In this document: positions 20,773 through 36,765 of the stretch, piece after piece
How the letters are laid out: the number at the start of each line of letters is the position of its first letter
How positions within the stretch are numbered: position 1 is the stretch's first letter
Source of the DNA: an uncultured Spirochaetaceae bacterium
GTDB taxonomy: Bacteria; Spirochaetota; Spirochaetia; DSM-27196; SLST01
Assembly (NCBI GenBank): GCA_964437265.1
Contig: CAYTGY010000003.1
Span: 1 to 38,000 of the forward strand
Length of the DNA: 38,000 nt
Direction: 5' to 3'
The notes under the pieces: generated by a model
What the model saw: only the letters and a program-made list of their open reading frames with translations
Told to the model about the DNA's origin: nothing
Database searches by the model: none
Translations under genes and position numbers: made by a program

Positions 20773-21731
20773 ATGAGAACCATCACGATTCCTGGTACCG
20801 ACCTCTCGGTCTCTACGATTTGCTATGGGACGGCCACGTTGGGCGTTACGATGAGCGACGCTGAGGTTGCCCGGCTCCTCACCACCTACCGTGACCACGG
20901 TGCACATTCCTTGATACCGCTCACGTCTACGCGTGCTGGACCAACGCCGGCGCGGGATCGAGCGAACAGACGATTGCCCGGTACCTAACGGCGAACCCGG
21001 CTCCGGAGATAGTAGTTGCAACCAAGGGCGGACACCCGGGAATGGCAGGATACCGCAGCGTGGAGCGTTGGCTGGACCCGTGCCGGGTGCGCGCTTACAT
21101 CCAGGACAGCTTGGGCCGGCTCGAGCGGGATACCATCGATCTCTACTACCTGCACCACGACGACACGCGTTTCACGGTGGCGGAGATAATCGACATGATG
21201 AACCGATTTGTCACCGACGGATTGATCCGCTTCTTTGCCGCAAGCAACTGGACCGCATCGCGATTGGCCGCGGCAAACGCGTACGCGCGGCACCAAGGTG
21301 TACAGGGGTTCGTGGCTTCGCAGGTGGAGTGGAGCCTTGCGGAACGGGAGCCGCCTCCCCCGCTACCGTACGGAGCGCAGACGGTTTTCGCACAGCCTGA
21401 AGATCAGTCCTTTCACGAGAGAACGGGACTGCCGCTGTGCGCGTACTCTGCAACTGCCGGAGGGTTCTTCAGCCGGGTGCCGACGGCACAGGTCCCAGGG
21501 AACGACCGTGATACCCCGGCCAGCCGAAAGCGACTCCTACGCACGCGAGAGCTTGCCTCCGAGTACGGAAAGACGCCGACGCAGATAGCACTGGCGTGGC
21601 TCATGCACCAGCGGTTTCGCTGTATCCCCATCACCGGAACCACCTCAGTCGATCATCTGCGAGAGAACCTCGGTGCGGCTGCGGTGCTGCTCACGGCAGA
21701 CCAGGTACGCCGGCTGCGGGATGGGCAGTAA
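20773..21731 (+). pseudogene. aldo/keto reductase interrupted by a -1 frameshift near 20895-20905
   Basis: The N-terminal frame (MRTITIPGTDLSVSTICYGTATLG...YRDHG) stops making AKR sense after about 20900. The next frame continues FLDTAHVYA...SEQTIARYL...VVATKGGHP...IDLYYLHHDD... to the stop at 21731. That frame opens after a TGA at 20892-20894. The track splits the gene into ORFs 20761..20988 and 21042..21731. Confidence 0.7.
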
Positions 21732-21758
21732 CGTAGCGGACCGAAGGACGCGCCACCG

Positions 21759-22643
21759 TCATCTGTCCGCGCCACCGTGCGTGTCGGTTAACAGCGACCA
21801 CAACGGCGGGAAGGGACGGCCCATGTTGTCACGGCCGGTTGCCGGATGCGGGGAGAGATACGCCTTAAGCGCACGCAGGATCGGCGCATCAAAGCCTACC
21901 CGGTCCGCCTCATCAAGAAAGTAGTCGAACTCGGCGTACTTGTGGTTCATCGCATCCCCGGCGCCGGCGAGTACGTTGACGGCGATCTCATGGAACTGCG
22001 CGCGGAACCCTGTGTCTCCGCCGACCGCGCGCATCAGCGTCCCTTCGTCCACGCCGGCGGTTACCCCGTAGGCGATCGCCTCCGAGTACGCCGCGGTGAG
22101 AAAGCCCATGGCGAGCTGGTTGACGCCTTTGGTGATCTGTCCGCATCCCGACGGCCCGCAGTAGGTCAACCGCTCAGACGCCAGCGTCTTCAGGATCAGC
22201 CAGACCCGCTCGGCAGGCTCGCGATCGCCGCCCACAAAACAGTAGAGGCTCCCCATTGCACAGCCAATTGCCCCGCCTGAGACCGGCGCATCCAGCAGAT
22301 GCGCGCCGCGTTGGGCAAACAGCCCGTGGAGCCGCCGCGTCTGCGAGGCGACCGTGGTGCCCATATCTATGACGATCATTCCCTCACGGACCGAGGGGAG
22401 GATCTGCTCCTCCAAGACACGCACGGTGACCTCTGAGCTCGGAAGGCTCAAGAGGATCACCGAACACCCCTTGGCCACCTGCTCCGCGCTCTCCGCCGCC
22501 GCCGCGCCGATCGCGGTTACCGTCGCGGTCCGCTCGGGGTCCAGATCGAACACCAGCAGATCGTAGAAGCTGCGCACCAGGGTGGTGGCCATGCGGCCGC
22601 CCATCGCCCCAAGCCCAATAAAGCCGATCTTCTTTCGCTGCAT
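21759..22643 (-). CDS. NAD(P)-dependent beta-hydroxyacid dehydrogenase family oxidoreductase (3-hydroxyisobutyrate DH / tartronate semialdehyde reductase-like)
   Basis: Contains KIGFIGLGAMGGRMA, DAPVSGG and GQITKGVNQL. I prefer ATG 22643 (GGAGG at 22651-22655, 7 nt upstream). ATG 22661 is also in frame. It is the last gene of its operon. Confidence 0.8.
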   Translation of the reverse strand: MQRKKIGFIGLGAMGGRMATTLVRSFYDLLVFDLDPERTATVTAIGAAAAESAEQVAKGCSVILLSLPSSEVTVRVLEEQILPSVREGMIVIDMGTTVASQTRRLHGLFAQRGAHLLDAPVSGGAIGCAMGSLYCFVGGDREPAERVWLILKTLASERLTYCGPSGCGQITKGVNQLAMGFLTAAYSEAIAYGVTAGVDEGTLMRAVGGDTGFRAQFHEIAVNVLAGAGDAMNHKYAEFDYFLDEADRVGFDAPILRALKAYLSPHPATGRDNMGRPFPPLWSLLTDTHGGADR

Positions 22644-22663
22644 CTTTACGCCTCCGCTCATGT

Positions 22664-23767
22664 TCAGCTGTACTCCGGAATGTCCACGCGCTCGCCATCG
22701 CGAAGTGCCGACTGGTGAGCGCAGATACCTACCGACGTCCAGTTCGCCGCCTGCTCGGCATTCGGAAACGGCTGCCGACCATCGACCAGTGCGGAAACCA
22801 TCTCATGAACCAGATGCGGGTGAGAACCGCCGTGACCTCCGCCCTGGATGAAGGAAAGGTGCTCCTCATCAGCGATGCTCTGCGTGAACTTCCTGATGGG
22901 CTCAGGCAGCCGATGTGCGAAGTCGGGGACCGTTACGCGCTCGGGGATCTCCGGTTCAGGCCTCTTTGCGGTGTGGAGGACCGGACTCTCGCCTTCGATC
23001 AACGGCCACTCGAACGACTTCTTTGATCCATACACATCGATGCTCTCTCGGTACTGCCGCGCAGTGTCCCAGAGAAAGCGCCAGATGTGCGCGGCCACAT
23101 CCGAGTCCTTGATCTTGATGTGACACGACTCAACGGCAAACCGGTTGCCCGACCGCTCTGCTACCTCGGCATGGACACGTCCCGAACCAACGCAGCTCAC
23201 GTACTCGGCGAGCCCCCCGACCATCGCCAGGACCGGACTGACCACGTGGGTGGCGTAGTGCATGGGGATCATATCCTTCCAGTAGTCGGGCCACCCCTCC
23301 ATATCCTGCGGATGCGACGCCTGCAGGTACTGGATCTCACCAAGCTCGCCCTTCTCCGCGAGATCCTTCACATACAGGTACTCACGGCTGTAGACCACGG
23401 TCTCCGCCATCATATAGGTGAGCCCGGTCTGCTTGACCAGATCAACTATTTGGCGACACTCCTCCAGCGTTGTCGCCATGGGAACGGTACACATCACGTG
23501 CTTGCCGGCCGTAAGCGCGGCGATCGACATGGGGGCGTGATCCGGAATGGGGCTGTTGATGTGGACATAATCCACATCGGGGTCGCGGAGTACGTCGCTG
23601 TAGTCGGTGTACCGGGTGGTCACGCCAAAACGGTCGCCCACCTCGTTGAGCTTTGACTCGTCGCGACGGCAGATCGCGGCGATCTCCGCCTGCGGGTGCG
23701 CCTGATAGATGGGAATGAACTCCGCACCAAAACCGAGACCAATCAGACCTACTCGTACCTTCTCCAT
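22664..23767 (-). CDS. Gfo/Idh/MocA family oxidoreductase
   Basis: 367 aa. It has the Rossmann start MEKVRVGLIGLGFGAEF and then HVMCTVPMATTLEE (an EKP-like position). GGAGGGAG lies upstream of the ATG. Confidence 0.8.
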   Translation of the reverse strand: MEKVRVGLIGLGFGAEFIPIYQAHPQAEIAAICRRDESKLNEVGDRFGVTTRYTDYSDVLRDPDVDYVHINSPIPDHAPMSIAALTAGKHVMCTVPMATTLEECRQIVDLVKQTGLTYMMAETVVYSREYLYVKDLAEKGELGEIQYLQASHPQDMEGWPDYWKDMIPMHYATHVVSPVLAMVGGLAEYVSCVGSGRVHAEVAERSGNRFAVESCHIKIKDSDVAAHIWRFLWDTARQYRESIDVYGSKKSFEWPLIEGESPVLHTAKRPEPEIPERVTVPDFAHRLPEPIRKFTQSIADEEHLSFIQGGGHGGSHPHLVHEMVSALVDGRQPFPNAEQAANWTSVGICAHQSALRDGERVDIPEYS

Positions 23768-23797
23768 ACTCCCTCCGTTGGTCGCAGCACCGTAGCG

Positions 23798-24526
23798 TCA
23801 CTGCGCCGCGACCGGCGTGACTTCTCCACTGCGGCTGGACTCGAGGATTGCGTGAGACACCTCGAGCGCGCGCAGACCATCGTGCCCGGTGACATCCGGG
23901 GTCCTGCCGTCCCGGATGCAGCCGATGAAGTGTTCGTTCTCCGCGACAAAACCGGAGAGATCATTGCGGTCATTGATCACATCAATGCGCTCGTGCGAAA
24001 GCGACTCGATACTCATACCGCACAGCAGGGCGGGATCGGTGCGCCAGTTGTACTCAGGCGAAGAGCCGGCTCCGCGGGCGATCCGTTGACACCAGATTGA
24101 GGTGAGATCGCCAATGCTGCCTGAGTCGACCATCTCCTTGAGACGGATGAACCCGTGGTGAAAACGGAACTTGAATGCCGTGGCCAGCGTCACCCCGGCC
24201 TCTTTGGCTGCGGCGACTATCCGGGCGCCGTCCTCCACGGAGATCGCCAACGGCTTCTCGCACACGATGTGCCGGCCGGCGGCGGCGGCAGCGCAGGCTA
24301 TCTGCGCGTGAGTGGACGGCGGGGTGAGGATGTAGACGGTGTCTACCAGATCGAAGAGCTCTTCGAGCGACTCACACGCGTGGGCGCCGCACGAACGCGC
24401 CACCTCGCGCGCCCGCGCTGCGTCGGTGTCAGCCACCGCGGCCACCTGCGCGTCGGCAATCTGTTCAAGCGAGTCGATGTGCCGGCCGGCGATTCCGCCG
24501 GCACCGACGATCCCTACTCGTACCAT
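23798..24526 (-). CDS. Gfo/Idh/MocA family oxidoreductase, unusually short (242 aa)
   Basis: Contains MVRVGIVGAGGIAGRH, HIVCEKPLA and SIGDL. After SLSHERIDVI it jumps directly into the C-terminal helix region FVAENEHFIGCIRDGRTPDVTGHDGLRALEV. GAGGAG lies upstream. Confidence 0.7.
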   Translation of the reverse strand: MVRVGIVGAGGIAGRHIDSLEQIADAQVAAVADTDAARAREVARSCGAHACESLEELFDLVDTVYILTPPSTHAQIACAAAAAGRHIVCEKPLAISVEDGARIVAAAKEAGVTLATAFKFRFHHGFIRLKEMVDSGSIGDLTSIWCQRIARGAGSSPEYNWRTDPALLCGMSIESLSHERIDVINDRNDLSGFVAENEHFIGCIRDGRTPDVTGHDGLRALEVSHAILESSRSGEVTPVAAQ

Positions 24527-24553
24527 GATGCTCTCCTCAAGTGGTGCCGGCGG

Positions 24554-25384
24554 CTATCCTTTGATGCCGCCCTGCGTAATGCCGCGGACGATGTGCCGCT
24601 GCATCACGAAGAAAAAGATGAGAATCGGCGTGATGGCAATCAGGATTGCCGCGAATATCGCCGGCCAATCGGCAGTCCACTCGCCCCAGAGACTGTACAT
24701 TGCGACCGGAATAGTCATCACATTGCCACGTCTGAGCATCAGCATCGGCAACAGGAAATCGTTCCAGAACCACATCCCCTGCAAAACCGCGATGGTCGCA
24801 AGAATCGGCCGGAGCAGCGGAAAGACAATCTGGAAGAACATCCGGAACGGCCCGCAACCGTCCACCGTCGCGGCATCCTCGAACCCGCGAGGAACGCTCT
24901 TCACAAACCCGTGGATGATGAAGATCGCAAACGTCGCGTCCATGCCCCAGTAGGTGAGAATGACGGAGAATCGGTTGTTGATGAGGCCCAGCGTTCCGTG
25001 AACCCTGGCAAGCGGAATCATCACGGTGTGAAACGGGACAATCATTGAGAAGGTGATGATGTAAAAAAGCGCCTGGCTGTACCAGGTCTTGGTTCTGGCC
25101 AACTTGTACGCGGCCATGCTCGCCATGGTCTGGATCCCTGCAACCCCCATCACGGTGATGAAGAGCGAGTTGAAGAGCGTTCGAGAGACCTGCAGCGCCT
25201 CCCAGGCGCGGGCGAAACTGCTCAACTGGACCGACTCAGGCAACGAGATGAATGAGAGCATCACCTCCGGATAGGTCTTCAGCGAGTTGAGCACCAGGTA
25301 GACGAGTGGGACTATTGTCAGAACCAAGATAACTGCGGCGATGATCTGAAACAGAATGCGGCTACTCAGACGTGTTTGAAGCAT
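24554..25384 (-). CDS. carbohydrate ABC transporter permease (MalG-like)
   Basis: Start trimmed to ATG 25384 (MLQTRLSSRILFQIIAAVILV...), with GGGAGGTGG upstream and a TAATG overlap with the preceding permease stop. EAA-like loop: EDAATVDGCGPFRMFFQIVFPLLRP. Confidence 0.85.
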   Translation of the reverse strand: MLQTRLSSRILFQIIAAVILVLTIVPLVYLVLNSLKTYPEVMLSFISLPESVQLSSFARAWEALQVSRTLFNSLFITVMGVAGIQTMASMAAYKLARTKTWYSQALFYIITFSMIVPFHTVMIPLARVHGTLGLINNRFSVILTYWGMDATFAIFIIHGFVKSVPRGFEDAATVDGCGPFRMFFQIVFPLLRPILATIAVLQGMWFWNDFLLPMLMLRRGNVMTIPVAMYSLWGEWTADWPAIFAAILIAITPILIFFFVMQRHIVRGITQGGIKG

Positions 25385-26274
25385 TAGAGTTCCACCTCCC
25401 GCCGCTTGGTGTAGCGGACCTGAATGAAGGTGATCAGCATCACGCATAAGAAGAGGAAGAGCGCTTTCGCGGAGGCGTATCCAAAGTTGGACGCCTGGAA
25501 CGCCTCATAGTAGACATCAACCGCCATGGTCTCAGTGGAACCTCCAGGGCCCCCGCCGGTCATTGCAAACACAATTGAGAACACCTTGAACGCGGTGGCG
25601 GTTGACAAGAAGAGCGTTACCGTGAACGTGGGCATCATCAGCGGGATGGTTATGCTGCGAAGCTTGCGTAACGGCCCCGCTCCATCCATGTCGGCGTTCT
25701 CGTAGAACTCGGCGCTGATCATCTGCAGGCCCGCGTAGTAGATGGTCATGTAGTAGCCAACCGTCTGCCACACAAAGCTGATGATGATAGTGGCCAGCGC
25801 CGGAGCCTGGTCGCGATACCAGCTGATATTGAGCGCCTCGAGCCCGATCGCCTCTGCGGCCTGCGGAATGATCTTGGTGAACATCACCTTCCAGATGAAG
25901 GCGACGATCACCAGGCTTATCGCGTTGGGCATGAACACCAGCGCTCGCTGCAGTTTGGCGCCGCGCAGTTTCCGGGAGTCAAAGAGCAACGCGTAGGCGA
26001 ACGCCATGAAGTTCACCGTGAACACATAGATCAGCGCGAAGACTACCGTGACGGTGAGCGTCTGCAGAAAGCCCGTGTCTGAAATGAGTCGGACGTAGTT
26101 GTCGAACCCCAGAAACGTCTTCTCATTGGAGATGCCGTTCCAGCGGTGAAACGAATAGACCACGCTGTTTCCCAGCGGATAGAGGAAGAATGTGATGTGG
26201 AAAATCTCCACGGGAAGCACAAAGGCAAGAAACAGGAGCAGGTTCCGGCCTCGCTTGCCGACGGTTGTTTGCAT
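25384..26274 (-). CDS. carbohydrate ABC transporter permease (MalF-like)
   Basis: Start trimmed to ATG 26274 (MQTTVGKRGRNLLLFLAFVLP...). Loop: YENADMDGAGPLRKLRSITIPLMMP. The track ORF start at 26334 would run through the intercistronic hairpin. Confidence 0.8.
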   Translation of the reverse strand: MQTTVGKRGRNLLLFLAFVLPVEIFHITFFLYPLGNSVVYSFHRWNGISNEKTFLGFDNYVRLISDTGFLQTLTVTVVFALIYVFTVNFMAFAYALLFDSRKLRGAKLQRALVFMPNAISLVIVAFIWKVMFTKIIPQAAEAIGLEALNISWYRDQAPALATIIISFVWQTVGYYMTIYYAGLQMISAEFYENADMDGAGPLRKLRSITIPLMMPTFTVTLFLSTATAFKVFSIVFAMTGGGPGGSTETMAVDVYYEAFQASNFGYASAKALFLFLCVMLITFIQVRYTKRREVEL

Positions 26275-26298
26275 CAAGGTGCTCCGGTCAAAAGGATG

Positions 26299-26329
26299 CC
26301 CCCGACCACACGTCCGCTGCGGTCGGGGG
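26299..26329 (-). terminator. intercistronic GC hairpin after the SBP gene (attenuator/mRNA-stabiliser candidate)
   Basis: CCCCCGACC (26299-26307) pairs with GGTCGGGGG (26321-26329). On the minus strand it is followed by CATCCTTTTGA. It lies between the SBP stop (26357) and the permease start (26274). Confidence 0.45.
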
Positions 26330-26356
26330 AGCATTGAACTACGGCATCAACTCAGG

Positions 26357-27595
26357 TTACTCGTCCGGATACTGAGAGTCGATAGTCTCAAAGAACGCGT
26401 CGCGGTCACCGTCGCGGAGATAGCTCTGCATGGCGGGAGCGACCACCTGCATGTCGAAGCCGGTGGCCCACTTGTTGAACCCCCAGCGGTGCGTTTCCCC
26501 TGAGCTCAGGTACTCTTGCAGCGCCGCGTTGATATTGACTGTCTCGCCTCTCGCCTGAAATCCGTTGAAGGCCATCAACGAGCCGGCCTCCTCGCCCAAG
26601 ATCTGCATCTGCTCCGGCGCCATGAGCCAGTTCAGAAAGTCTTTGGTCTCCTGGATCTGATCGCCGCCTGCGTAGACCGACCATACCGCACTGACGTCCA
26701 CCGAGAGCGTCGCATCCTCAGGATTCTCCGAGACCGGAACGGCGAAGAGACCCGCGTTGAAATCGGGATCGATGCTGGTGATATTACCGACCGCCCAGAT
26801 GCCCTGAATGATCATGGCCGCCTGCCCCTGCGCCAACAGCGCGCAAGCGTCGTCAAAACCGGCGTCAAAGGGACGATCCTGAACATTGGCGTTCATGAGA
26901 TCCACAACATCCATCGCTCGGTCTATGCCTTCAACCCGAAACGTATCTCGCTCGCCGCTCTCCATTTCCTCGGAGAACTGGACGGGGTCACCCACCACCG
27001 GTGTGTGGATCAGTGAGAACAGGTGCCGGAGCGTCCAGACGTCGTTGTAGTAGCCGGCAAACGGGAGGTATCCCGCATCCTTCACTTGCTCCACAACCTG
27101 CTCAAGCTCACTCACGGTACGCGGAACGCTCATGCCTAGTTCTTCGGCGATGTCCATATTGTAGACCACGCCCATGGCGTTGGTTGCCGGCGGCATCCCC
27201 CAAAGCCGGCCCTCATGCCGACCGGTGTCCAAGATGCTATCGGGATACTGCTCAAGGACCGGCAGGTCACCGATCGGCTCAAGATGACCGGCCTCAGCGA
27301 AATCGATCAGCATGGCTCCGGCCTGAATAGCGAACAGATCATGGACATCGCCGCTTGCCAAGACGGTGCGGAGCGCGGCCCAGTAGTCGTCCCCGCCCAG
27401 CCGTACGACCTCCACCGTCACATTCGGGTTGGCTTCCTCATACGCAGGAACGATCTCCTTGAGCACACGAAGATAGTCCTGTCCATGCTGGTTGAACCTG
27501 ATGGTAATAGGTTCATTGCCCTGCTCCTCGGTTCCAGTGGCGAACCCGGCCACGCCGACGACCACCATTAGCATCAGTACGAAAACACGTTTCAT
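26357..27595 (-). CDS. extracellular solute-binding protein, family 1 (sugar)
   Basis: Start trimmed to ATG 27595 (MKRVFVLMLMVVVGVAGFATGTEEQ, a signal peptide with no lipobox), with AAGGAGGA upstream. About 412 aa with typical sugar SBP composition. Confidence 0.8.
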   Translation of the reverse strand: MKRVFVLMLMVVVGVAGFATGTEEQGNEPITIRFNQHGQDYLRVLKEIVPAYEEANPNVTVEVVRLGGDDYWAALRTVLASGDVHDLFAIQAGAMLIDFAEAGHLEPIGDLPVLEQYPDSILDTGRHEGRLWGMPPATNAMGVVYNMDIAEELGMSVPRTVSELEQVVEQVKDAGYLPFAGYYNDVWTLRHLFSLIHTPVVGDPVQFSEEMESGERDTFRVEGIDRAMDVVDLMNANVQDRPFDAGFDDACALLAQGQAAMIIQGIWAVGNITSIDPDFNAGLFAVPVSENPEDATLSVDVSAVWSVYAGGDQIQETKDFLNWLMAPEQMQILGEEAGSLMAFNGFQARGETVNINAALQEYLSSGETHRWGFNKWATGFDMQVVAPAMQSYLRDGDRDAFFETIDSQYPDE

Positions 27596-27642
27596 TGTAT
27601 CCTCCTTGTTGAAGAGCATTGCGCTCCTCAGTGAGTCATCTA

Positions 27643-27662
27643 CAATTGGATACATCCAATTG
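27643..27662. promoter_or_regulatory. palindromic operator CAATTGGAT-AC-ATCCAATTG
   Basis: 9-bp perfect arms around a central AC. The 18-nt core at 27644-27661 is identical to 36702-36719. It begins about 20 nt downstream of the -10 of the SBP operon promoter. Confidence 0.7.
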
Positions 27663-27682
27663 GTTCGTCTTGAACAGGAAGC

Positions 27683-27712
27683 AGTATAACCGCCCTTCTC
27701 GTCGTCTGTCAA
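27683..27712 (-). promoter_or_regulatory. candidate promoter of the SBP/permease/dehydrogenase operon
   Basis: Minus strand: TTGACA (27712-27707), an 18-nt spacer, then TATACT (27688-27683). Confidence 0.5.
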
Positions 27713-27779
27713 ATGGAAAGTTTCCTCGCTTCAAAGACGCGTATTCTCCACCTGAGAACGGCGGAAGGGAAGATCGAGG

Positions 27780-27808
27780 TTGACATTGGCCTCTGCTTGC
27801 CCAATAAT
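27780..27808 (+). promoter_or_regulatory. candidate promoter of the regulator/GH65 unit
   Basis: TTGACA (27780-27785), a 17-nt spacer, then AATAAT (27803-27808). GGGGAG lies 7 nt before ATG 27875. Confidence 0.35.
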
Positions 27809-27823
27809 TGGATATGCCCAATA
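27806..27823. promoter_or_regulatory. degenerate copy of the operator overlapping the regulator promoter -10
   Basis: AATTGGATATGCCCAATA matches AATTGGATACATCCAATT at 14 of 18 positions. The left half-site AATTGGATA is perfect. Confidence 0.4.
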
Positions 27824-27874
27824 TCCGTGTTAGCCGAGAGTTCTGTGTTCGGTGAATTGATGGGGAGATGACGT

Positions 27875-28987: not shown

Positions 28988-31787
28988 CCGGGACGCCGTG
29001 GCCGGAATCATTCGCTCACGCCAGATTCAGGCTCTGGTGCTATACGGGCAGGAGCTGTGCTCGACGATCCTCTCTCTCCCGGACCTGTTGAGCTCCTTGG
29101 CAAAGACGGTGGGAGTAGGGACGCCGGAATCCGGCGGGATCGCCCTCTGCATAGCCTGTCCGGATCCGGAGCCGACGGCCCAAAGCTTCCTCAACGCCGG
29201 CGTTCACTCAATCTCGGCTATCGAGGTGGATGACGGTGATCTCGAGCGCGTGGTTCGCCCCGGACCGGAGGCCGCGGCGATCCTGCAGCGCCACTGCACG
29301 ACGAACGCGGCGCACATTGCGGTGCTGCATGACGGCTGCCTTTCTCACCTGCCGGCGTCCGACGCAGGCCCGCGATTGGTTGAGATTGCTCCCAGGATCG
29401 CTCCAGAAGTCGACATAGATGCACTGCTGCACACCGGTTGGCCCACACCGCTCAATCGGGACCCATGGGCGATCATCGAAGAGAGCCCCGATTCACGGCC
29501 ACCCGGCCACTGGGAAACGGTGCTGGGCTTGACAAACGGATACGTCGGGTGTCGAGCGACGCACGAGGAGCGCGGCACGGCTCTACGACGTTACGGTGCT
29601 ATGTTCATCAACGGCGTTCGGTCGAGACGGCCGTACTCGCACCCGGTTGAGTTCCCCGGATTCGCCACGCACTATCAGGGCATTGTCAACGTGGGCGAGT
29701 GGCGCCTCTTTGGTGTCCTCCGGGACGGTGCGCCGCTCGAGCCGCTGGATCCGGCACACCTGCGCTCTTACGATCGGCGGCTTAACCTGCGTACCGGCTG
29801 TGTGGAGCGATCTCTCACCACCGCTCACGGTGAGACCGAGCTCCAGATCAGCTCCACCTGGTTGGTTTCTGCAACGCGCCCGCACATTGCGGCGGCACGC
29901 TACGAAGTAACGCTCCCGCTGGGAAACTCTACGTGTGAGCACGAGCTCTTCGCGGAGCTGGTACGAACACCGGCCACGAATGCATTCGACGAACCGCGGG
30001 TTCGGGTCACGCGTGACGGCAGCGAGGAGCACACGGAGCCCGGCGGGCCCGAGACGGGACGGATCACGTGGCACATCCTTGCCGTGGAGAAGTCCGAGCA
30101 GATTGTGGCGATTTGCGTGCATACCGCGTTTACAGGTACGGAACCGCCACGCGAGTACGCGACCTCCGATGGACCACTCCAGCGAGCCCGCATGACCGGC
30201 GACCGCGCCGAAGTCCAGCGGACTCTCTGCATCCACGACGGCGTTCGCGGCGAGGAGGATGCGCTGCTCCAGAAGTGCCTAACGGAGATCCGTAGCTGCG
30301 CGGGGGTCGGCTTCCGCCGGCTGAGCGAAGAACAAAGCGCACACTGGAGACGGACGTGGGAGCGGATTGGCGTTCGTGTGGAAGGCCCGGACGCAGACCG
30401 GCAGGCGCTCCGGTACGCCCTGTTTCAGCTGCACTCCCACGCTCCCTCCCAAGACGGTCACTCGATTCCCGCAACCGGACTGGTTGGCGACGGGTATGGG
30501 GGGCATATCTTCTGGGACACCGAGATCTACATGCTACCGTTCTTCAATCTGACCAACCCGGACCTGGCACGTCACGCGCTGATGTACCGGTACCACCTTC
30601 TCCCGAGAGCACGGAAGCGAGCGCGGGAGATGGACGGGCGCGGTGCCCTGTTCGCCTGGAACACCATTGACGGCGATGAATGCGGCGTGGTGTTTGAGGC
30701 CTCTACTGCTCAGTATCACCTCAATTGCGCGGTCGCCTACGCGCTGTGGCAACACTATCAGGTGACCGGAGATGACGCGTTCCTGCGTGACATTGCCACC
30801 CCAATCGTATGGGAAACCGCGATCTTCCTATCTCACCTTGGGGCGCTTATCCCGGAACGCGACGGGTCGTTCTGCCTCAACGTGGTGTGTGGACCGGACG
30901 AATACGCCTGCGGCGTGGACAACAACGCGTACTTCAACTACATGACGCACTGGCACTTTGGGCTTGCGCTCCACCTGGTCGAGCGATGGACCTCAGAAGC
31001 GCCGTCCGCATGCGCCCGGATGCGCGAAGCGGCCGGTCTGGATCATGACGAGGCAGACAGGCTGCAACAGGCGCACGCCAAGATGTATCTGCCGCAGCCC
31101 AACGCGGACGGGATCATCCCGCAGGACGACTCGTACCTGACCCGCAATCCGGCGCAGATGCGGCTGATCGCACACAATACCGACATCCGCGATCTGATGC
31201 ACCCGCTCAATCTGTGGCGAATCCAGGTCACCAAACAGGCTGATGTCGTCCTGCTCTTCCTCCTTCGCCCCGACCTCTTTGATAACGCGACCCGCAAGGC
31301 GAACTACGACTTCTACGAAGCGCGCACCAATCACGGATCGTCGCTCTCTCCGGCGGTCCACTCGATTGTGGCCAACGAGATCGGATACCGTGAAGCGGCG
31401 TACCGTTACTTCAGCCACTCGGCGCGGCTGGACCTGGATGACTTTAAGCGCAACGCGTGGAAGGGCTTGCATACCGCCTGCCTTGGCGGAACCTGGTTGA
31501 GCGCGGTATTTGGCTTTGGCGGTGTTCGGATAACCGACGATGGGTTCACTCTCAACCCCAGGCTCCCCGATGCATGGGAGTCACTCGAGTTTCCGTTGGC
31601 CTACCGGGGAGCGCACGTCCGCGTGAGCTGTACGCACCGGCGAATCCGCGTCCAGCTTCGCGTGGGTGAGAAGATGCAGCTGACGGTAAACGGTGAGCTT
31701 GTGGTGCTCACGCCTGAACGATGTACGTGGGAATGGGAATCGGCCTCAGCCGGGGAGTTCTCTGCCGCAGAGCTCCCGCCAGAATGA
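28959..31787 (+). CDS. GH65 family enzyme (disaccharide phosphorylase-like) with about 167 extra N-terminal residues
   Basis: Recognisable GH65 sequence begins at DPWAIIEE...LGLTNGYVGCRATHEE (about 29460). Catalytic-domain blocks: GLVGDGYGGHIFWDTEIYMLPFF, ALFAWNTIDGDECG, TNHGSSLSPAVH. The GTG 28959 start overlaps the regulator gene by 29 nt. The true start is uncertain. Confidence 0.8.
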   Translation: MGRVLVSLSDRDAVAGIIRSRQIQALVLYGQELCSTILSLPDLLSSLAKTVGVGTPESGGIALCIACPDPEPTAQSFLNAGVHSISAIEVDDGDLERVVRPGPEAAAILQRHCTTNAAHIAVLHDGCLSHLPASDAGPRLVEIAPRIAPEVDIDALLHTGWPTPLNRDPWAIIEESPDSRPPGHWETVLGLTNGYVGCRATHEERGTALRRYGAMFINGVRSRRPYSHPVEFPGFATHYQGIVNVGEWRLFGVLRDGAPLEPLDPAHLRSYDRRLNLRTGCVERSLTTAHGETELQISSTWLVSATRPHIAAARYEVTLPLGNSTCEHELFAELVRTPATNAFDEPRVRVTRDGSEEHTEPGGPETGRITWHILAVEKSEQIVAICVHTAFTGTEPPREYATSDGPLQRARMTGDRAEVQRTLCIHDGVRGEEDALLQKCLTEIRSCAGVGFRRLSEEQSAHWRRTWERIGVRVEGPDADRQALRYALFQLHSHAPSQDGHSIPATGLVGDGYGGHIFWDTEIYMLPFFNLTNPDLARHALMYRYHLLPRARKRAREMDGRGALFAWNTIDGDECGVVFEASTAQYHLNCAVAYALWQHYQVTGDDAFLRDIATPIVWETAIFLSHLGALIPERDGSFCLNVVCGPDEYACGVDNNAYFNYMTHWHFGLALHLVERWTSEAPSACARMREAAGLDHDEADRLQQAHAKMYLPQPNADGIIPQDDSYLTRNPAQMRLIAHNTDIRDLMHPLNLWRIQVTKQADVVLLFLLRPDLFDNATRKANYDFYEARTNHGSSLSPAVHSIVANEIGYREAAYRYFSHSARLDLDDFKRNAWKGLHTACLGGTWLSAVFGFGGVRITDDGFTLNPRLPDAWESLEFPLAYRGAHVRVSCTHRRIRVQLRVGEKMQLTVNGELVVLTPERCTWEWESASAGEFSAAELPPE

Positions 31788-32627
31788 CGGCGAAGGTCTC
31801 CCGGCCTCAACGGTGAGAAGCTCCGCATCGCGGCAGAACTCGAGCAGCGCATCCGCGATGGGCAGGCGGTGATCCATCAGACCAGCCTCCTCGCTAAACG
31901 CGCCAAGCTGACCGTACTTGATACCGACGTCGTCTCCGGCTCCGTCTGCCATCTTTGCAAGCACGGTGCTGAAGAGCCCGCGGAAACCACCGTCGCCGCC
32001 AATCGCCCGCTCCATCGCCTCGAGATCGAGCCCCGCCCGCCTACCGAATGACGCTGCCTCGAGCACCGCGGCGTGCACCAATCCCATCCCAAGCTGATTG
32101 ACCACCTTCATCGCCTGGCCCTGCCCGCTCGATCCGCAGTAGACCACGCGCTGCGGGTCTCCTACCGCCTCCAAAATCGGCCGCACCGCTTCAACATCCT
32201 CAGCCCGGCCACCGGCAAAGACTCGCAAGGTTCCGGCTACCGCGCCCCCGCCGCCGCCGCTGACCGGTGCATCAACCAGCCGGGCGCCGCGCTCGGCAAA
32301 CGCGTGCGCCAACCGGACCGTCTCAGACGCCGTGGTGGTGCCAAAGTCGATGAAGAGCTGTCCTTCACGAGCGGCGGGAAGGAGCTCGGTCTGGGCAACC
32401 TCGACGAACACGGTGAAATCGGGAAGGCTGGTGCACACCACATCCGAGCGGGAGACCAACTCGGCGACGGACTCGGCCGCCGTCGCACCGTTCGCTACCG
32501 CTGCAGCGAGCGCTACAGGCGCGCGGTCGTACACAGAGAGCGGCGATGCCACAGACGCGATATGCCGAGCCATCGGGCCGCCCATCGTCCCCAAGCCGAT
32601 GAATCCAACGCTGAACCTGCTATTCAC
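31746..32627 (-). CDS. NAD(P)-dependent beta-hydroxyacid dehydrogenase family oxidoreductase (paralogue of 21759-22643)
   Basis: GTG start 32627 with GGAGGA 5 nt upstream. Contains VGFIGLGTMGGPMA, DAPVSGG and GQAMKVVNQL. Its 3' end overlaps the convergent GH65 gene by 42 nt. Confidence 0.8.
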   Translation of the reverse strand: MNSRFSVGFIGLGTMGGPMARHIASVASPLSVYDRAPVALAAAVANGATAAESVAELVSRSDVVCTSLPDFTVFVEVAQTELLPAAREGQLFIDFGTTTASETVRLAHAFAERGARLVDAPVSGGGGGAVAGTLRVFAGGRAEDVEAVRPILEAVGDPQRVVYCGSSGQGQAMKVVNQLGMGLVHAAVLEAASFGRRAGLDLEAMERAIGGDGGFRGLFSTVLAKMADGAGDDVGIKYGQLGAFSEEAGLMDHRLPIADALLEFCRDAELLTVEAGRPSPSFWRELCGRELPG

Positions 32628-32647
32628 GTGAGTCCTCCATGCGCGTA

Positions 32648-33763
32648 CTATTCGAGCGCGCCCATCAGGTGCTCAATCGAGGTCTCGAGTGCCTCGGTGA
32701 TCCTCTGCGGGTCGTCGTCCAGGTCACGCGCCTCAAGCTCAACAACGTATCCGCCGGTGTAGCCGATCTCGCGCATCGCCGCAAAGAGCGACGCGAAATC
32801 GACGGTCCCACGGCCAAAGACCGTGCTCGCACCGTCGCGGAGATCCTTGATGTGGCAATACGCAATCCGGTCGCGAAACGCCCCAAACGCCTCCCGCCAC
32901 GGAATCCCGGCCTTCTCAAAGTGCCCGACTTCCAACAGTACCTTGAGCCGAGGATCGCCGACCGCATCGAGCACCTCTTGCGCGTTGTCGATCGTGGCGA
33001 CCGGGGTTCCCGAGTGGTTCTGGAGCACCACGGTGAGCCCCAACTCCTGGGCTCGGTCGAGGATCTCACCAGCCACCGGCGGGTACGCCTCTCGTGTGGG
33101 CGCTTTGATCAGCACCACCGGAACCCCGGCCTCCGCGGCAAACTCCAGTGCTTCGCGTGCTCGTTGCAGGGAGCCGGCGTCCTCGGGGTCGGCGACGGGT
33201 AGATGCAGCGACGCGAACTCGATCCCGTACGGAGCGGCAAGTGCCCGGTAGAAGCCGGCGCCCCTGCTCGGATCGATCCCTGACGCAGGTCCTCCGGTGA
33301 AGAGTTCGAGCTTGCGGAATCCCAGCCGGTGGAAGATGGGCAAGAGCGCCTCGAGCGTCAGCGTGGGTAGGCACATAGGTGAGGCGATCAGACTGTCTGC
33401 GATGCGTTCGGTATGGAAGTCGCGCGCCGCCGTTGGGTAGGCGACGATCATCTCCGCATCCTCGTCTCCCACGCTCTGTGCACCGTGAAAGACCCCCGGC
33501 GGGAGGACGATGGTATCTCCGGCGTTGAGCTCGGCACGCTCCGCGCCCACCGAGTGGATCAGCTTGCCGCGCAGAAGGTAGAGCACCTCTTCGCATGAGT
33601 GATAGTGACGCGGATTGCTCATCCCCTGCTTGATCACCACTCTGCCTATTGTCGTGGACGCGGAGTTCCCGATCTGCCCGCCGGCAAGCCACTCGAGGCT
33701 CCCCCACTCCGCCTTGATCATCGCCGCCTGAGAATCATCCGCCGTACGTACCGAGAAATGCAT
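32648..33763 (-). CDS. fusion protein: N-terminal cupin domain plus C-terminal xylose-isomerase-like TIM barrel (sugar phosphate isomerase/epimerase family)
   Basis: Residues up to about 120 (GRVVIKQGMSNPRHYHSCEEVLYLLRGKLIHSVG...GDTIVLPPGVFHGAQ) form a cupin. The remainder (FRKLELF..., ASLHLP..., VVLQNHSG..., LLEVGHF..., CHIKD..., VVELE) has the AP-endonuclease-2/xylose-isomerase-like barrel pattern. GGAGGA lies 6 nt upstream of the ATG. Confidence 0.75.
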   Translation of the reverse strand: MHFSVRTADDSQAAMIKAEWGSLEWLAGGQIGNSASTTIGRVVIKQGMSNPRHYHSCEEVLYLLRGKLIHSVGAERAELNAGDTIVLPPGVFHGAQSVGDEDAEMIVAYPTAARDFHTERIADSLIASPMCLPTLTLEALLPIFHRLGFRKLELFTGGPASGIDPSRGAGFYRALAAPYGIEFASLHLPVADPEDAGSLQRAREALEFAAEAGVPVVLIKAPTREAYPPVAGEILDRAQELGLTVVLQNHSGTPVATIDNAQEVLDAVGDPRLKVLLEVGHFEKAGIPWREAFGAFRDRIAYCHIKDLRDGASTVFGRGTVDFASLFAAMREIGYTGGYVVELEARDLDDDPQRITEALETSIEHLMGALE

Positions 33764-33814
33764 GCTGAGTCCTCCGTCCTCTTTGTGTGCGCCATCAGCG
33801 CGCGATTTGCGCCA

Positions 33815-34639
33815 TTAGCGCCCGATTGCCGTGAACGCTTCCACCTGCGCTTTGATGGCTCGTTCGACGGGAAGCCGTTCCATTGAGCTCGCACCGTAGA
33901 ACCCGTTTACGCCCTCGCACTCGCGCAGGATGTAGGCGGCGTCGTCGGGCTCCGCAATCGGTCCGCCATGGCACAGGACAATCACGTCGTCGCGGACCGA
34001 CCGGGCGGCGTCGACGATACCGTTGATCACCGGCACGCACTCCTCGAGCGTGAGCGCGGTCTTTGCGCCGATCGACCCTGAGGTGGTGAGCCCCATATGC
34101 GCCACCAGAATGTCCGCACCGGCACTGGTCATCGCCCGAGCGTCGTCGCCATTGAACACGTAGGGCGTGGTCAGGAGATCCAGCTCGTGCGCCGTGGCGA
34201 TCATGCCGACCTCACGGTCGTACCCCATGTTGGTCTCCTCCAGGTTCGCCCGGAAGTTCCCGTCGATGAGCCCCACCGTGGGGAAGTTCTGAACGCCGGC
34301 AAAGCCGGTGGATTTGACCTGAGCAAGGAAGGTGGGCATGAGCCGCATGGGATCGGTTCCACACACCCCGGCTAGTACCGGCACCTTCTTGACCACCGGA
34401 AGCACCTCACGCGCCATCTCCATCACCACCGCGTTCGCATCTCCGTAGGGCATGAGACCGGCAAGCGAGCCGTGCCCCGCCATCCGGAAGCGGCCTGAGT
34501 TGTAGATCACAATGAGGTCGATCCCGCCAGCTTCCTCCCACTTCGCGCTGATTCCGGTGCCGGCCCCGCCTCCAATGATCGGCTTGCCTGCAGCGATCTT
34601 GTCGTTCAACGTCTTTAGTATCGATGTGCGATCAGTCAT
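33815..34639 (-). CDS. PEP-hydrolase-like TIM-barrel protein (Tm-1 C-terminal-domain family)
   Basis: 274 aa. The pattern [37 protein letters not shown]...[13 protein letters not shown]...[14 protein letters not shown]...VLCHGGPI is characteristic of this family, from memory. Its ATG overlaps the upstream stop (ATGACTGA). Confidence 0.7.
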
Positions 34640-35852
34640 TCGATTTCTCCTTCATGAGCGCGAGCAACTCGGAAGCGCAGCGGTCGGCGAATGCTTCGTC
34701 ATTGATGAAGCTGTCCATCTCAATCAGCGCAATGTCCTCGCGAAGCGTATCGCGGATTGCGCCAAAGAGCGCCTCGTTTGCCGCCGGATCGTAGAACGCT
34801 CCGTCGGGCCCGTCGATCATGCTCACGCCCTTGAGCGGGAGCAGAACGGTCACCGGCCCCGTGCTTGCGTTGACCTTCTCCGCAAGCGATCTACCGAGCT
34901 GCGCGTTCTCCTCCGGGGTGGTGCGCATGAGCGTCACATTGGGATTGTGCCGGTAGAAGGTGCGTCCGGCATGTTTCTCCGGAATCGTCTCAGGCGCCCA
35001 GAAGTTGACCATATCAAGGCAGCCCGGTGTCACTACGGCCGGGACACCGGTAGACGCAGCGGCGGTCAGCCGGTCAGGGCCGGCTGAAAAGACCCCGCCG
35101 ACAAGATCATCCGCAAGCTCGGTGGTGGTGATATCAAGAACGCCTGCGATGTGCCCCTCGCGGACCAGATTCTCCAGTGAACGCCCTCCGTTTCCGGTGC
35201 AGTGAAAGACCAGCACCTCATAGCCGGCTTTCGCCAGCGCTGCGGATGCCCGGTCCACCGCTTTGGTGGTGTTTCCAAACATTGAGGCGGCGATGAGCGG
35301 CTTCTCCTCACCTTCAGGAACCTCCGTCTCCACCATCCCACAGATCGCGCCCGCGGCTCCGGCAAACACGGTGCGGCTGATCCGGTTGATCCCGGCAACA
35401 TCAACAATGCTGGGAATCATCACAATGTCCTTGACGCCAACGTAGCCGGAGACGTCACCGCCGGCGGCAGTAGACACCATGACCTTTGGCACGCCGAGCG
35501 GGAGCTCGCGCATCGCCGCAGTTGCCATCGCGGTGCCGCCGGTCCCACCGAGAGCGAGGACCCCGTCAAGACGTCCCTGCGCGTGAAGCCGCGGAACAAA
35601 CGCGGCGACGGCGCGTGACATGAGCGCAACCGCTTCACCTCGGTCCATTGCATCAAGCGCCGTGTCTCCGGCTCCTATCGCGGCGAGCACCTCGCTCCTA
35701 GAGATATCCGGAGCAATGCTCGGCTCCTCTTTTGTGCCCACATCTACCACCACCGGCGTGTGCCCCCGCTCCTTGATCAGGTCGCGCAGAAACGCATACT
35801 CGCGCCCTTTGGTGTCAAGCGCCCCAATGAGAACAATCGATTTACGGCTCAT
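34632..35852 (-). CDS. UPF0261 / Tm-1-like ATP-binding domain protein
   Basis: Start trimmed to ATG 35852 ([39 protein letters not shown]), with GAGGAGGG upstream. About 406 aa. It is adjacent to its usual PEP-hydrolase-like partner. Confidence 0.7.
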
Positions 35853-35862
35853 CGTACCCTCC

Positions 35863-36663
35863 TCATGCACCATCGAATCTGCCGAACATCGCGCGCGCCT
35901 CTTCGAGCGTCTTGCGGTGCGCGACGGGGTCATCCATGTTCACGCTGAATGGTGAAAACTCCACCACCGCGTATCCGTCGTACCCGCGTGCGTCCATCGT
36001 CTCCAGATACCCAACATTGTCCGCCGTCCCTTCGCCAAACGGGGCAAAGTCCTTCTTCCCGAACTGCCGGTTGTCCTTGAGATGTATGTGCTTGATTCGG
36101 GATCCGAACTCGCGGGTTACCTCATCCAGCGCGATTCCGGCCGCATGGAAGTGTCCAACGTCCACACACAATCCCAGGTTGGGCGAGTCGAACCGGTCGA
36201 ACACGGTCCGGTAGTCATCGATGTTCTCAAGATTGAATCCCGCGTGGTTCTCAAGCGCGTAGGTCACTCCCATCTCCTCGCAGAACGGCAGAATCAGCTC
36301 GAGGATCGTGAGCACGCCGTCCAATCCGCCATACTCTCCTCGCCGCGCGCTGGTACCGCAGACGAGCGAGCATCCGAGCTCGCGGGCGGCCTCAACCACG
36401 CGCATCTTGTGAGATAGATCCTTGGTGAGTTGATCCCGCTCACCACCGCCGATCATGGTGGCGTAGAAGGACGAAGGACTGAGCCCGCTCTGTTCACACC
36501 GCGCCCGTACCTCCGCCACGCCCGTTCTGGTGAGATTGTGCGCGTGGAAGAATGCGAACTCCACATTGGAAAAACCAACCTGCGGCGCCAACTCAAACGT
36601 CTTCCGGAAGCTCGTATCGTCAAAGCTGTCAAAGCAGAGCGTGGAAACGGATAGGGTAATCAT
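35863..36663 (-). CDS. xylose-isomerase-like TIM-barrel protein (sugar phosphate isomerase/epimerase family)
   Basis: Start trimmed to ATG 36663 (MITLSVSTLCFDS...), with GAGGTG upstream. Contains YALENHAG, VDVGHFH, IHLKD and VVEF blocks. Confidence 0.75.
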   Translation of the reverse strand: MITLSVSTLCFDSFDDTSFRKTFELAPQVGFSNVEFAFFHAHNLTRTGVAEVRARCEQSGLSPSSFYATMIGGGERDQLTKDLSHKMRVVEAARELGCSLVCGTSARRGEYGGLDGVLTILELILPFCEEMGVTYALENHAGFNLENIDDYRTVFDRFDSPNLGLCVDVGHFHAAGIALDEVTREFGSRIKHIHLKDNRQFGKKDFAPFGEGTADNVGYLETMDARGYDGYAVVEFSPFSVNMDDPVAHRKTLEEARAMFGRFDGA

Positions 36664-36692
36664 GCATACACCTCGGTGCGGGAGTAGTGTCA

Positions 36693-36728
36693 CCGGTGTG
36701 AAATTGGATACATCCAATTTCACACCGG
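36693..36728. promoter_or_regulatory. 36-bp palindromic operator (17-bp perfect arms, central AC)
   Basis: CCGGTGTGAAATTGGAT-AC-ATCCAATTTCACACCGG. The core at 36702-36719 is identical to 27644-27661. It starts 8 nt downstream of the candidate -10 and ends 30 nt upstream of ATG 36663. Confidence 0.7.
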
Positions 36729-36736
36729 CTGCGCAC

Positions 36737-36765
36737 AGCATACCCGGTCACCTGTGAGCTGTCAA
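36737..36765 (-). promoter_or_regulatory. candidate promoter of the TIM-barrel/UPF0261 operon
   Basis: Minus strand: TTGACA (36765-36760), a 17-nt spacer, then TATGCT (36742-36737). Confidence 0.45.

Follow-up and report, generated by a model that had tools for sequence, protein, structure and literature searches.

Gene organization of the locus

The window analyzed here is the whole 38,000-nt stretch of DNA (approximately 60% G+C; assembly GCA_964437265.1, contig CAYTGY010000003.1) from an uncultured Spirochaetaceae bacterium. It carries a putative repressor-controlled system for the catabolism of an alpha-glucoside, which is composed of two minus-strand operons and, between them, a plus-strand gene pair encoding a regulator and a glycoside hydrolase family 65 (GH65) enzyme. 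This arrangement had been described in an initial annotation of the DNA, and the open reading frames (ORFs) and Pfam searches of their products, by which the families were assigned, agree with it in coordinates and families.

Operon 1 begins with a CUT1-type solute-binding protein (SBP; 26357-27595; Pfam SBP_bac_1 and SBP_bac_8), followed by two CUT1-type ABC permeases (permease 1, 25384-26334; permease 2, 24554-25447; both BPD_transp_1), a short Gfo/Idh/MocA protein of 242 residues with an internally deleted C-terminal domain (23798-24526), a full-length Gfo/Idh/MocA dehydrogenase of 367 residues (Gfo367; 22664-23767) and, as the last gene, a beta-hydroxyacid dehydrogenase of 300 residues (bHADH1; 21759-22661; NAD_binding_2, 1e-38). 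The best PDB matches of the SBP are binding proteins of sugar ABC transporters (6PQL, 2HEU and 2HQ0/2I58; 124 bits), which we take to be RafE, the raffinose-binding protein of S. pneumoniae. Operon 2 is headed by a xylose-isomerase-like TIM barrel protein (TIM266; 35863-36663). It continues with a Tm-1-like ATP-binding protein of the UPF0261 family (406 residues; 34632-35852), a PEP_hydrolase-like TIM barrel (PF09370, "TBST"; 274 residues; 33815-34639; 7.5e-133), a fusion of a cupin with a xylose-isomerase-like TIM barrel (cupin-TIM; 371 residues; 32648-33763; Cupin_2 and AP_endonuc_2) and a second beta-hydroxyacid dehydrogenase of 293 residues (bHADH2; 31746-32627). The junctions inside both operons are 2-51 nt long or overlapping; the UPF0261 stop and the PF09370 start overlap by 8 nt.

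The regulator (370 residues; 27875-28987) consists of a GntR helix-turn-helix (HTH) and a LacI/GalR-type sugar-binding domain. Its stop overlaps by 20 nt the start of the GH65 gene (939 residues, GTG start; 28968-31787), whose product has the GH65 N, m and C domains of Pfam, preceded by a 160-residue domain without a Pfam match (28968-29447). The convergent 3' ends of the GH65 and bHADH2 genes overlap by 42 nt (31746-31787), and the same 42-nt overlap is present in two related loci, L003 and L004. No terminator-like structure was found at this overlap.

A Pfam scan of the non-overlapped window ORFs of at least 180 residues detected no ROK, FGGY or PfkB kinase and no HAD-type beta-phosphoglucomutase (beta-PGM), as had been noted in the initial annotation.

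Operators, promoters and the regulator

The 18-bp palindrome AATTGGATACATCCAATT has two exact occurrences, O1 (27644-27661) and O2 (36702-36719). In 100 shuffles the chance expectation was 0, even when 3 mismatches were allowed. O1 lies 3' of the predicted operon-1 promoter (27683-27712, minus strand; TTGACA-18 nt-TATACT, 11/12 match), and O2 lies 3' of the predicted operon-2 promoter (36737-36765, minus strand; TTGACA-17 nt-TATGCT, 10/12 match); the earlier description of a TTGACA-type promoter followed by an identical palindrome at each operon is thus borne out. A third, degenerate copy (OR, AATTGGATATGCCCAATA; 27806-27823) overlaps by 3 nt the -10 hexamer of the predicted regulator promoter (27780-27808, plus strand; TTGACA-17 nt-AATAAT, 11/12 match). 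A scan of 21000-37500 for consensus sigma-70-like promoters yielded five matches, approximately the number expected by chance, and the top three (11/12, 11/12 and 10/12) are exactly the three operator-bearing promoters. O1 and O2 begin 21 and 17 nt past the respective -10 hexamers, at approximately +11 to +32, a placement that would fit a repressor and is typical of one.

The locus is syntenic throughout in L003, a JGI metagenome, and L004, a Logan assembly, whose proteins are 74-96% identical to those of the window except for the short Gfo protein. In their intergenic DNA, which has otherwise diverged, conservation forms islands at the promoter hexamers (-35 and -10), the ribosome-binding sites and the three operators. 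O1 is identical in both loci, O2 reads AATTGGAYGCRTCCAATT and OR reads TATTGGGCACATCCAATT. Both hexamers of the operon-1 promoter and the -35 hexamer of the operon-2 promoter are kept.

In the regulator, the GntR winged helix (PF00392) spans residues 14-74 (E = 1.4e-15), and matches to Peripla_BP_1, Peripla_BP_3 and Peripla_BP_4 cover residues 107-365. The NCBIfam matches to CytR, RbsR and PurR span the C-terminal part only. This is the chimeric architecture of the AraR subfamily; B. subtilis AraR likewise combines a GntR winged helix with a LacI/GalR-type effector domain. AraR and its subfamily act on 16-bp, A/T-flanked palindromes at or past promoters, including the regulator's own, and the window sites share these features. 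The window differs from B. subtilis AraR in the operator sequence (core ATTGGATAYATCCAAT) and in the translational coupling of the regulator gene to the GH65 gene.

A more distant locus, L171, encodes a regulator 61% identical to that of the window and a GH65 enzyme 51% identical to the window GH65. Apart from these two proteins it shares with the window only an unrelated ABC system, and the two SBPs are not homologous. Four copies of the core ATTGGATAYATCCAAT, exact or nearly so, are present there (0.15 expected), one each 5' of the genes for the SBP, the regulator-GH65 pair, the permeases and a GH78 alpha-L-rhamnosidase. Because the same core surrounds a related regulator and GH65 in an otherwise different locus, the palindrome appears to travel with the regulator. 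We infer that it is the operator of an AraR-type repressor, whose binding is predicted.

The two operons are also linked independently of the operator. In the window, Gfo367 and bHADH1 are encoded in operon 1 and TIM266 heads operon 2, and homologues of these three proteins (hereafter, the trio) are encoded contiguously elsewhere. In L174, a metagenome-assembled genome (MAG) of the Spirochaetaceae, a XylR-type regulator, a Gfo protein (80% identical to Gfo367), a bHADH (57% to bHADH1) and a TIM barrel (48% to TIM266) follow one another. In a Spirochaetales MAG (L002/L033), homologues of PF09370, bHADH1 (59%), TIM266 (45%), cupin-TIM (49%) and bHADH2 (46%) are followed by a GH63/trehalase-like glycosidase and then a sulfatase. 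The genes that the window splits between its operons are therefore inherited together. With operators that are conserved in L003 and L004 and recur at L171, this agrees with the two-operon regulon of the initial annotation, and we consider it very probable that one repressor would control three promoters, those of the two operons and that of its own gene.

The GH65 enzyme

The best PDB match of the GH65 enzyme is kojibiose phosphorylase (3WIQ, 297 bits), and its next relatives are glucosylglycerol phosphorylase (4KTP), E. coli YcjT (6W0P) and maltose phosphorylase. Like the characterized GH65 enzymes, it has N, catalytic and C domains and retains the catalytic acid along with most phosphate-site residues, and it is at most approximately 31% identical to any characterized or named GH65 found. 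A word-indexed search of a collection of 5.8 billion protein clusters placed it in a clade of only five proteins, all at 51% identity or above, and the match ranked after these was at 31%.

The roles of the active-site residues have been compiled for the kojibiose phosphorylase CsKP (PMC11442529). The catalytic acid (CsKP Glu483, in a GPDE motif) is kept in 5/5 clade members. The equivalents of Ser631/Ser632, His675 and Tyr337 are kept in the motifs HGSSLSP, GLHTA and GYGGH, those of Lys596/Gln597 are kept in the alignment with 3WIQ, and a Glu base is absent. With these residues kept and without the Glu base, the enzyme looks like a phosphorylase. It lacks the WET motif of the +1 site and the long loop 3 that mark the kojibiose phosphorylase subgroup; its own loop 3 is approximately 11 residues shorter than that of kojibiose phosphorylase.

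The N-terminal 160 residues are conserved at the amino acid level in L003 and L004 (dN/dS 0.19-0.27 at dS 0.4-1.5), and the extension is real coding sequence. An exhaustive HMMER search of 1.84 billion representative proteins gave no true homologue of this domain, the sole match being a spurious PKD-repeat protein. The AlphaFold model of the enzyme, built from five sequences, is too poor to use (pLDDT 55.7), and in it the N-terminal domain has only a beta-alpha-beta pattern (pLDDT 60-84).

Dehydrogenases and TIM266

Gfo367 belongs to a family with more than 8000 matches, the best 120 of which are 76-91% identical to it; the best relatives include proteins from Devosia, Jiella, Pleomorphomonas and Spirochaetaceae. 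In L174 and in L173 (Devosia oryziradicis), a XylR-type regulator (PBP1_XylR and AraC HTH) precedes a 369-residue Gfo367 homologue.

The short Gfo protein had been listed in the initial annotation as a shortened Gfo/Idh/MocA of operon 1. Most of its C-terminal domain is absent through internal deletions. It is the least conserved protein of the locus (69%, as compared with 83-96% for its operon-1 neighbors), and its orthologue in L003 has suffered further in-frame deletions that leave 162 residues and remove the EKP motif. By these signs it is a decaying remnant and not a second working dehydrogenase.

The best PDB matches of bHADH1 are tartronate semialdehyde reductase and 3-hydroxyisobutyrate dehydrogenase (HIBADH), and those of bHADH2 are 2-(hydroxymethyl)glutarate dehydrogenase and HIBADH. 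The dehydrogenases that are 57-59% identical to bHADH1 in L174 and L002 are those next to the TIM266 homologues described above.

The UPF0261/PF09370 pair and the cupin-TIM fusion

The UPF0261 protein resembles tomato Tm-1 (277 bits) more than it does MarK (9MPY, 219 bits). MarK is an aromatic kinase of the UPF0261 family from N. aromaticivorans, which phosphorylates phenolic hydroxyls and was activated 1600-fold when the lysine of its D-T-K motif was restored (PMC12624787). The window protein has the sequence L-D-T-K-G at residues 12-16, in which Asp13-Thr14-Lys15 form the ATP-site motif (Lys16 in MarK, Lys20 in Tm-1). It keeps the equivalents of MarK Gly195, His219 and His304, the first two of which are ligands of the acceptor hydroxyl. 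The residues of the aromatic pocket of MarK (Thr196, Phe283, Ile285 and His348) are replaced by Asn, Met, Asn and Ile, so an aromatic substrate is unlikely. We infer that the protein is kinase-competent on a more polar substrate. The suggestion in the initial annotation that it supplies a phosphorylation step gains from the MarK precedent and from the kept D-T-K motif and acceptor ligands.

As in Tm-1-like proteins, a UPF0261 domain is accompanied by a PF09370 TIM barrel, but in the window they are encoded by separate genes. Tm-1 is known only as an inhibitor of viral replication. MarK has been described as a homodimer with no mention of a PF09370 partner, whereas the window has a separate, adjacent PF09370 gene. 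Our literature search on PF09370, PF06792 and UPF0261 gave nothing beyond MarK and the Tm-1 origin paper. The best PDB match of the PF09370 protein is 2P10 (399 bits), which has no assigned function. UPF0261 adjoins PF09370 in 70/85 loci, and the other genes of the window do not. The nearest relatives of both proteins are from MAGs of Planctomycetota, Armatimonadota and Sumerlaeota. The earlier term "split Tm-1-like pair" is apt insofar as the two domains are adjacent, co-oriented and overlap by 8 nt. A role of the pair in the pathway is not to be assumed from this, for the pair is autonomous. In another locus, L156, UPF0261 and PF09370 are fused in a 710-residue ORF (10387-12516), as in plant and fungal Tm-1-like proteins, and the fused gene is convergent with a cupin gene whose product has 58% identity to the corresponding half of the window fusion.

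The cupin-TIM fusion is rare, with approximately ten proteins found. Its cupin residues His53, His55, Glu59 and His93 are invariant (a His-x-His...Glu...His metal motif), and Glu, Asp and His residues of the TIM half are kept. The AF2 model is good (pLDDT 90); the Foldseek search with it was generic and non-discriminating, with Art22 isomerase, IolE, UlaE and ketose 3-epimerases first. Metagenomes commonly encode stand-alone cupins with 50-60% identity to the cupin half. Their commonest neighbor is a Gfo/Idh/MocA gene (7/29 loci), an association that is moderate only; relatives of the TIM half also occur beside Gfo genes (see below), and both observations link the cupin/TIM family to Gfo dehydrogenases. 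The fusion adjoins the UPF0261/PF09370 pair in the window, L002, L003, L004 and L009. UPF0261, PF09370, a TIM barrel and a cupin are separate adjacent genes in L099, and in L166 UPF0261 is directly followed by a cupin. Because these arrangements (the fusion loci, L099, L156 and L166) are independent, they support a link between the cupin and the UPF0261/PF09370 pair.

Proposed pathway and alternatives

The regulon reads as four modules under one operator: the repressor with GH65, the CUT1 importer, the trio, and the block of UPF0261, PF09370, cupin-TIM and bHADH2. In the scheme that we propose, the AraR-type repressor would bind the 16-18 bp palindrome with the core ATTGGATAYATCCAAT at the three promoters and be released by a sugar effector. 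The ABC importer would take up an alpha-glucoside-type oligosaccharide, and GH65 would cleave its alpha-glucosidic bond to give beta-glucose-1-phosphate (or glucose) and a non-glucose sugar or polyol. The latter may be converted by Gfo367, TIM266 and bHADH1 through NAD-dependent oxidation, metal-dependent isomerization or epimerization, and reduction. UPF0261, PF09370, cupin-TIM and bHADH2 may then carry out an isomerization, an ATP-dependent phosphorylation, a cleavage or phospho-enol step and a terminal reduction. We give this reading as a whole, a repressor-controlled alpha-glucoside regulon with its pathway, a probability of roughly 45%; its biochemical part is put forward tentatively.

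The order of these steps draws on the related loci. The trio occurs elsewhere without a nearby glycosidase, adjoined by a XylR-type regulator (L174 and L173); genes for monosaccharide-type binding and transport are also close to its homologues in L173. Conversely, L171 has the regulator-GH65 pair without the trio and without the block of UPF0261, PF09370, cupin-TIM and bHADH2. These two facts favor cleavage by GH65 followed by processing of the aglycone, and the earlier proposal that GH65 splits the substrate and one moiety is then processed fits these loci. In the Spirochaetales locus L002, the GH63/trehalase-like enzyme takes the place of GH65, which would fit a shared aglycone reached through different alpha-glucosidases. 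L004 has an extra bHADH gene and two more genes for xylose-isomerase-like TIM barrels 5' of its operon-2 homologue (1363-3946), and no operator copies are associated with these genes.

Several points weigh against the proposed reading. In the phosphate site of GH65, CsKP Lys330 is replaced by Thr (IPATGL) in 5/5 clade members, and the WET motif of the +1 site (Trp391, Glu392 and Thr417) is replaced by W-N..A, which matches no characterized specificity; both changes, and the short loop 3, are common to the whole clade. No beta-PGM is present among the scanned window ORFs. The assignments of all the dehydrogenases, Gfo367 included, and of the TIM barrels are at the family level only, and Gfo367 is 76-91% identical across phyla. 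A Pfam census of 91 same-strand neighbors of the UPF0261/PF09370 pair in approximately 60 genomes gave 107 families and no recurrent partner, and the pair stands mostly alone or in non-sugar contexts. The PF09370 protein is 67-79% identical among Planctomycetota, Armatimonadota, Bacillota, Bacteroidota, Alpha- and Gammaproteobacteria and other groups (loci L011-L090), a conservation that is unusually high for an enzyme without an assigned function. Together with the lack of a common partner, it argues for one universal substrate rather than a pathway-specific step. From sequence and gene context we deduce repressor binding, the succession of reactions, all substrates and what UPF0261 and PF09370 would do chemically.

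Our literature search found no published pathway for this gene set, in agreement with the initial annotation, which could name no matching pathway. The closest published analogue, which the initial annotation left unmentioned, is the ycjM-ycjW cluster of E. coli K-12, and it matches the window only in part and not gene for gene. In that cluster, YcjT is a kojibiose phosphorylase, YcjQ, YcjR and YcjS convert a D-guloside into a D-glucoside, YcjNOP(V) is the importer, YcjU is a beta-PGM and YcjW is the repressor. If the window enzymes acted in the same order, the redox enzymes and isomerases would convert the intact imported glycoside by C3 oxidation, epimerization and reduction into an alpha-glucoside, which GH65 would then phosphorolyze. 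Both loci hold the same families under one regulation: a repressor, a CUT1 ABC importer, GH65, Gfo/Idh/MocA and a xylose-isomerase-like TIM barrel. The window GH65 shares 30% identity with YcjT along its whole length (290 bits), TIM266 matches YcjR over the full length (21%, E = 1e-5), and both window TIM barrels are nearest to sugar epimerases and isomerases by sequence and fold. Permeases 1 and 2 match YcjO (28%) and YcjP (25%) weakly but over the full length, and the SBP matches YcjN weakly. However, counterparts of YcjQ (zinc-dependent alcohol dehydrogenase), YcjU and YcjM (GH13_18) are absent from the window, and Gfo367 matches YcjS in the Rossmann domain only. The window GH65 differs from YcjT in its extra N-terminal domain and its +1 motif. 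The regulator is of the AraR type with a GntR HTH, whereas YcjW has a LacI HTH, and the window has two divergent operons with a regulator-GH65 unit that is predicted to be autoregulated. The occurrence of the trio without a glycosidase, with monosaccharide-type transport genes nearby in L173, suggests a free monosaccharide as its substrate. Finally, a ycj-like order leaves UPF0261, PF09370, the cupin and bHADH2, which like bHADH1 are extra to the ycj gene set, unexplained. We regard such an order as unlikely.

The wide distribution of the UPF0261/PF09370 pair bears on a further alternative, in which the pair, and perhaps Gfo367, performs a general reaction on a common metabolite (for example a phospho-enol or ketone-activating step, metabolite repair or signaling) and is merely co-transcribed with a sugar pathway made up of GH65, the TIM barrels and the dehydrogenases. 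The identity of PF09370 across Planctomycetota, Pseudomonadota, Armatimonadota, Bacillota and other phyla and the lack of a recurrent neighbor family speak for it. So does the two-gene unit that the pair forms in Providencia, Proteus, Morganella, Serratia and Erwinia beside a divergently oriented gene of approximately 210 codons, and so does the only known activity of the family, which is the phosphorylation of phenolic hydroxyls (PMC12624787). In the window, however, the pair sits between TIM266 and cupin-TIM with tight or overlapping junctions and under the operator. The same embedding is found in L002 and L009 (49% cupin-TIM identity) and in L099, and cupins of this family recur beside UPF0261 in three other arrangements. 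We judge a mere co-transcription of the pair to be improbable.

A non-Koshland oxidative cleavage of the LgdA/B1/B2/C, AL/BT1-3 or DgpA/BC type is also improbable. In such a route Gfo367 would make a 3-keto-glycoside, a dehydrogenase would reduce the 3-keto-glucose, and GH65 would act on another bond of the same oligosaccharide. Like the window, the levoglucosan set (PMC7676230) and the P2B11 cluster of gut bacteria (bioRxiv 10.1101/2024.03.25.586180) combine two Gfo proteins with two "sugar phosphate isomerase" TIM barrels, and in the Lgd, AL/BT1-3 and P2B11 sets, as in the window, such genes lie by an ABC importer and a repressor. Those sets lack the kinase, cupin, bHADH and GH65 components, and their likeness to the window is at the family level only. 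The best PDB matches of Gfo367 are DgpA1, DgpA and LgdA, but the likeness is confined to the N-terminal NAD-binding Rossmann domain, and the scores against the NCBIfam levoglucosan, glycoside and disaccharide 3-dehydrogenases (LevoglcsnDh, BT_2158 and BT_2159) were far under the cut-offs (71/650, 44/750 and 39/650 bits, respectively). The 2-hydroxy-3-keto-glucal hydratase AtHYD of A. tumefaciens is among the fold matches of cupin-TIM, at rank 18, and relatives of the TIM half are encoded beside a Gfo gene, accompanied in Phycisphaerae by a separate cupin and in one other case by a GH116 and an ABC importer. By sequence, however, neither TIM266 nor cupin-TIM matched a known 3-keto-glycoside lyase or hydratase in the PDB at E <= 1e-3. 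The second Gfo protein is a decaying remnant, and the kinase pair and the two bHADHs would have no place in such a route. The initial annotation had taken a Gfo protein with TIM-barrel partners as the hallmark of DgpA/DgpBC- and LgdA/LgdB-type elimination; this holds for the families, and it is not carried further by the Rossmann-only match, the lack of a lyase match or the generic fold search.

Candidate substrates

GH65 enzymes that act on non-glucose aglycones such as glycerol and L-rhamnose are known, among them a glucosyl-rhamnose phosphorylase (PMC11442529). L-Rhamnose or another 6-deoxy sugar is a lead for the aglycone, based on the GH78 gene under the operator in L171 and, in the window, on a weak rhamnosidase-like GH39 protein and a glycyl radical enzyme of the diol dehydratase type. 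Glycerol- or glycerate-type aglycones are a lead of the same standing; neither is established. Glucosylglycerate or glucosylglycerol was suggested as a substrate by the GH63/MGH1-like glycosidase that replaces GH65 in L002; this idea found no further support and was not adopted.

Two known routes were compared with the locus and rejected. The L-threonate/D-erythronate route (LtnD/DenD, OtnI, OtnK and OtnC) is a loose analogy only: the ThreonDh scores were 102-111 bits against a cut-off of 350, the OxoTetrIsom score was 28 against 325, and neither DUF1537 nor a class II aldolase/OtnC is encoded. A sulfoquinovose or sulfated-sugar route was not adopted, all scores being far under the cut-offs, and sulfated sugars stay a mere lead; it was suggested by the sulfatase genes that recur in the window and in L002, L010 and L171, by weak matches of both bHADHs to sulfolactaldehyde reductase and by a nearby glycyl radical enzyme that resembles sulfopropanediol dehydratase.

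Other genes in the window

A second carbohydrate cluster lies on the minus strand at 12051-20050. It encodes a GH39-like protein with a weak match to alpha-1,4-L-rhamnosidase, a URO-D-like protein, a GH130 enzyme resembling beta-mannoside phosphorylases, and a 792-residue glycyl radical enzyme of the PFL2/glycerol dehydratase family with its radical-SAM activase. The best specific matches of the glycyl radical enzyme, sulfopropanediol dehydratases HpfG and HpsG, are far under the cut-offs. A plus-strand gene for an AraC-type regulator adjoins the cluster, which implies an anaerobic lifestyle and possibly a metabolism of diols or deoxy sugars.

At 6782-11978, an arylsulfatase-like sulfatase (545-residue ORF) is followed by a second CUT1 ABC system with two permeases and an SBP of 490 residues. 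Sulfatases also adjoin the conserved core in L002 and L010, and another is present in L171. Directly upstream of the operon-2 promoter, 36856-37838 contains genes for a FitA-like ribbon-helix-helix antitoxin (82 residues) and a PIN-domain toxin (135 residues), which overlap by 4 nt, and then a TrpR-like ORF of 90 residues. Just downstream of operon 1 (20117-21731), a gene for a putative endonuclease of the Uma2 family is followed by an aldo/keto reductase ORF that lacks the first approximately 85 profile positions and is probably a truncated or frameshifted gene. Three large ORFs at 2446-6893 have no Pfam or NCBIfam match (349 residues, minus strand; 299 and 849 residues, plus strand).

Implications for the regulon and the UPF0261 family

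A sugar-responsive repressor with operators on divergent catabolic operons is a textbook design and is ordinary on its own. The catabolic system itself is of a known type, a repressor-controlled glycoside regulon, and its uncharacterized parts are the GH65 clade with its orphan domain, the cupin-TIM fusion and the split Tm-1-like pair. The GH65 clade is a candidate for a new phosphorylase specificity, which would be of practical interest for glycoside synthesis. The Gfo/bHADH/TIM trio is a conserved module of unassigned function, whose Gfo protein is shared at 76-91% identity by many taxa, including Alphaproteobacteria and Spirochaetaceae.

The activities assigned to the UPF0261 family so far are one aromatic kinase (2025) and virus resistance in tomato. 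On a speculative reading, which we consider unlikely as it stands, the UPF0261/PF09370 pair, as the bacterial split form of the Tm-1-like proteins of plants and fungi, could form with cupin-TIM an undescribed ATP-dependent module. This module would phosphorylate a keto-sugar intermediate at an enol or hydroxyl group and go on to cleave or rearrange the product, in place of a sugar kinase and an aldolase, for the non-glucose half of an alpha-glucoside freed by a new GH65 specificity. If this were true, the UPF0261/TBST family as a whole would gain its first physiological context with a substrate. The operator places this widespread and conserved pair in a predicted inducible sugar pathway with few candidate partners, and the question of the function of the family becomes experimentally approachable through this regulon.

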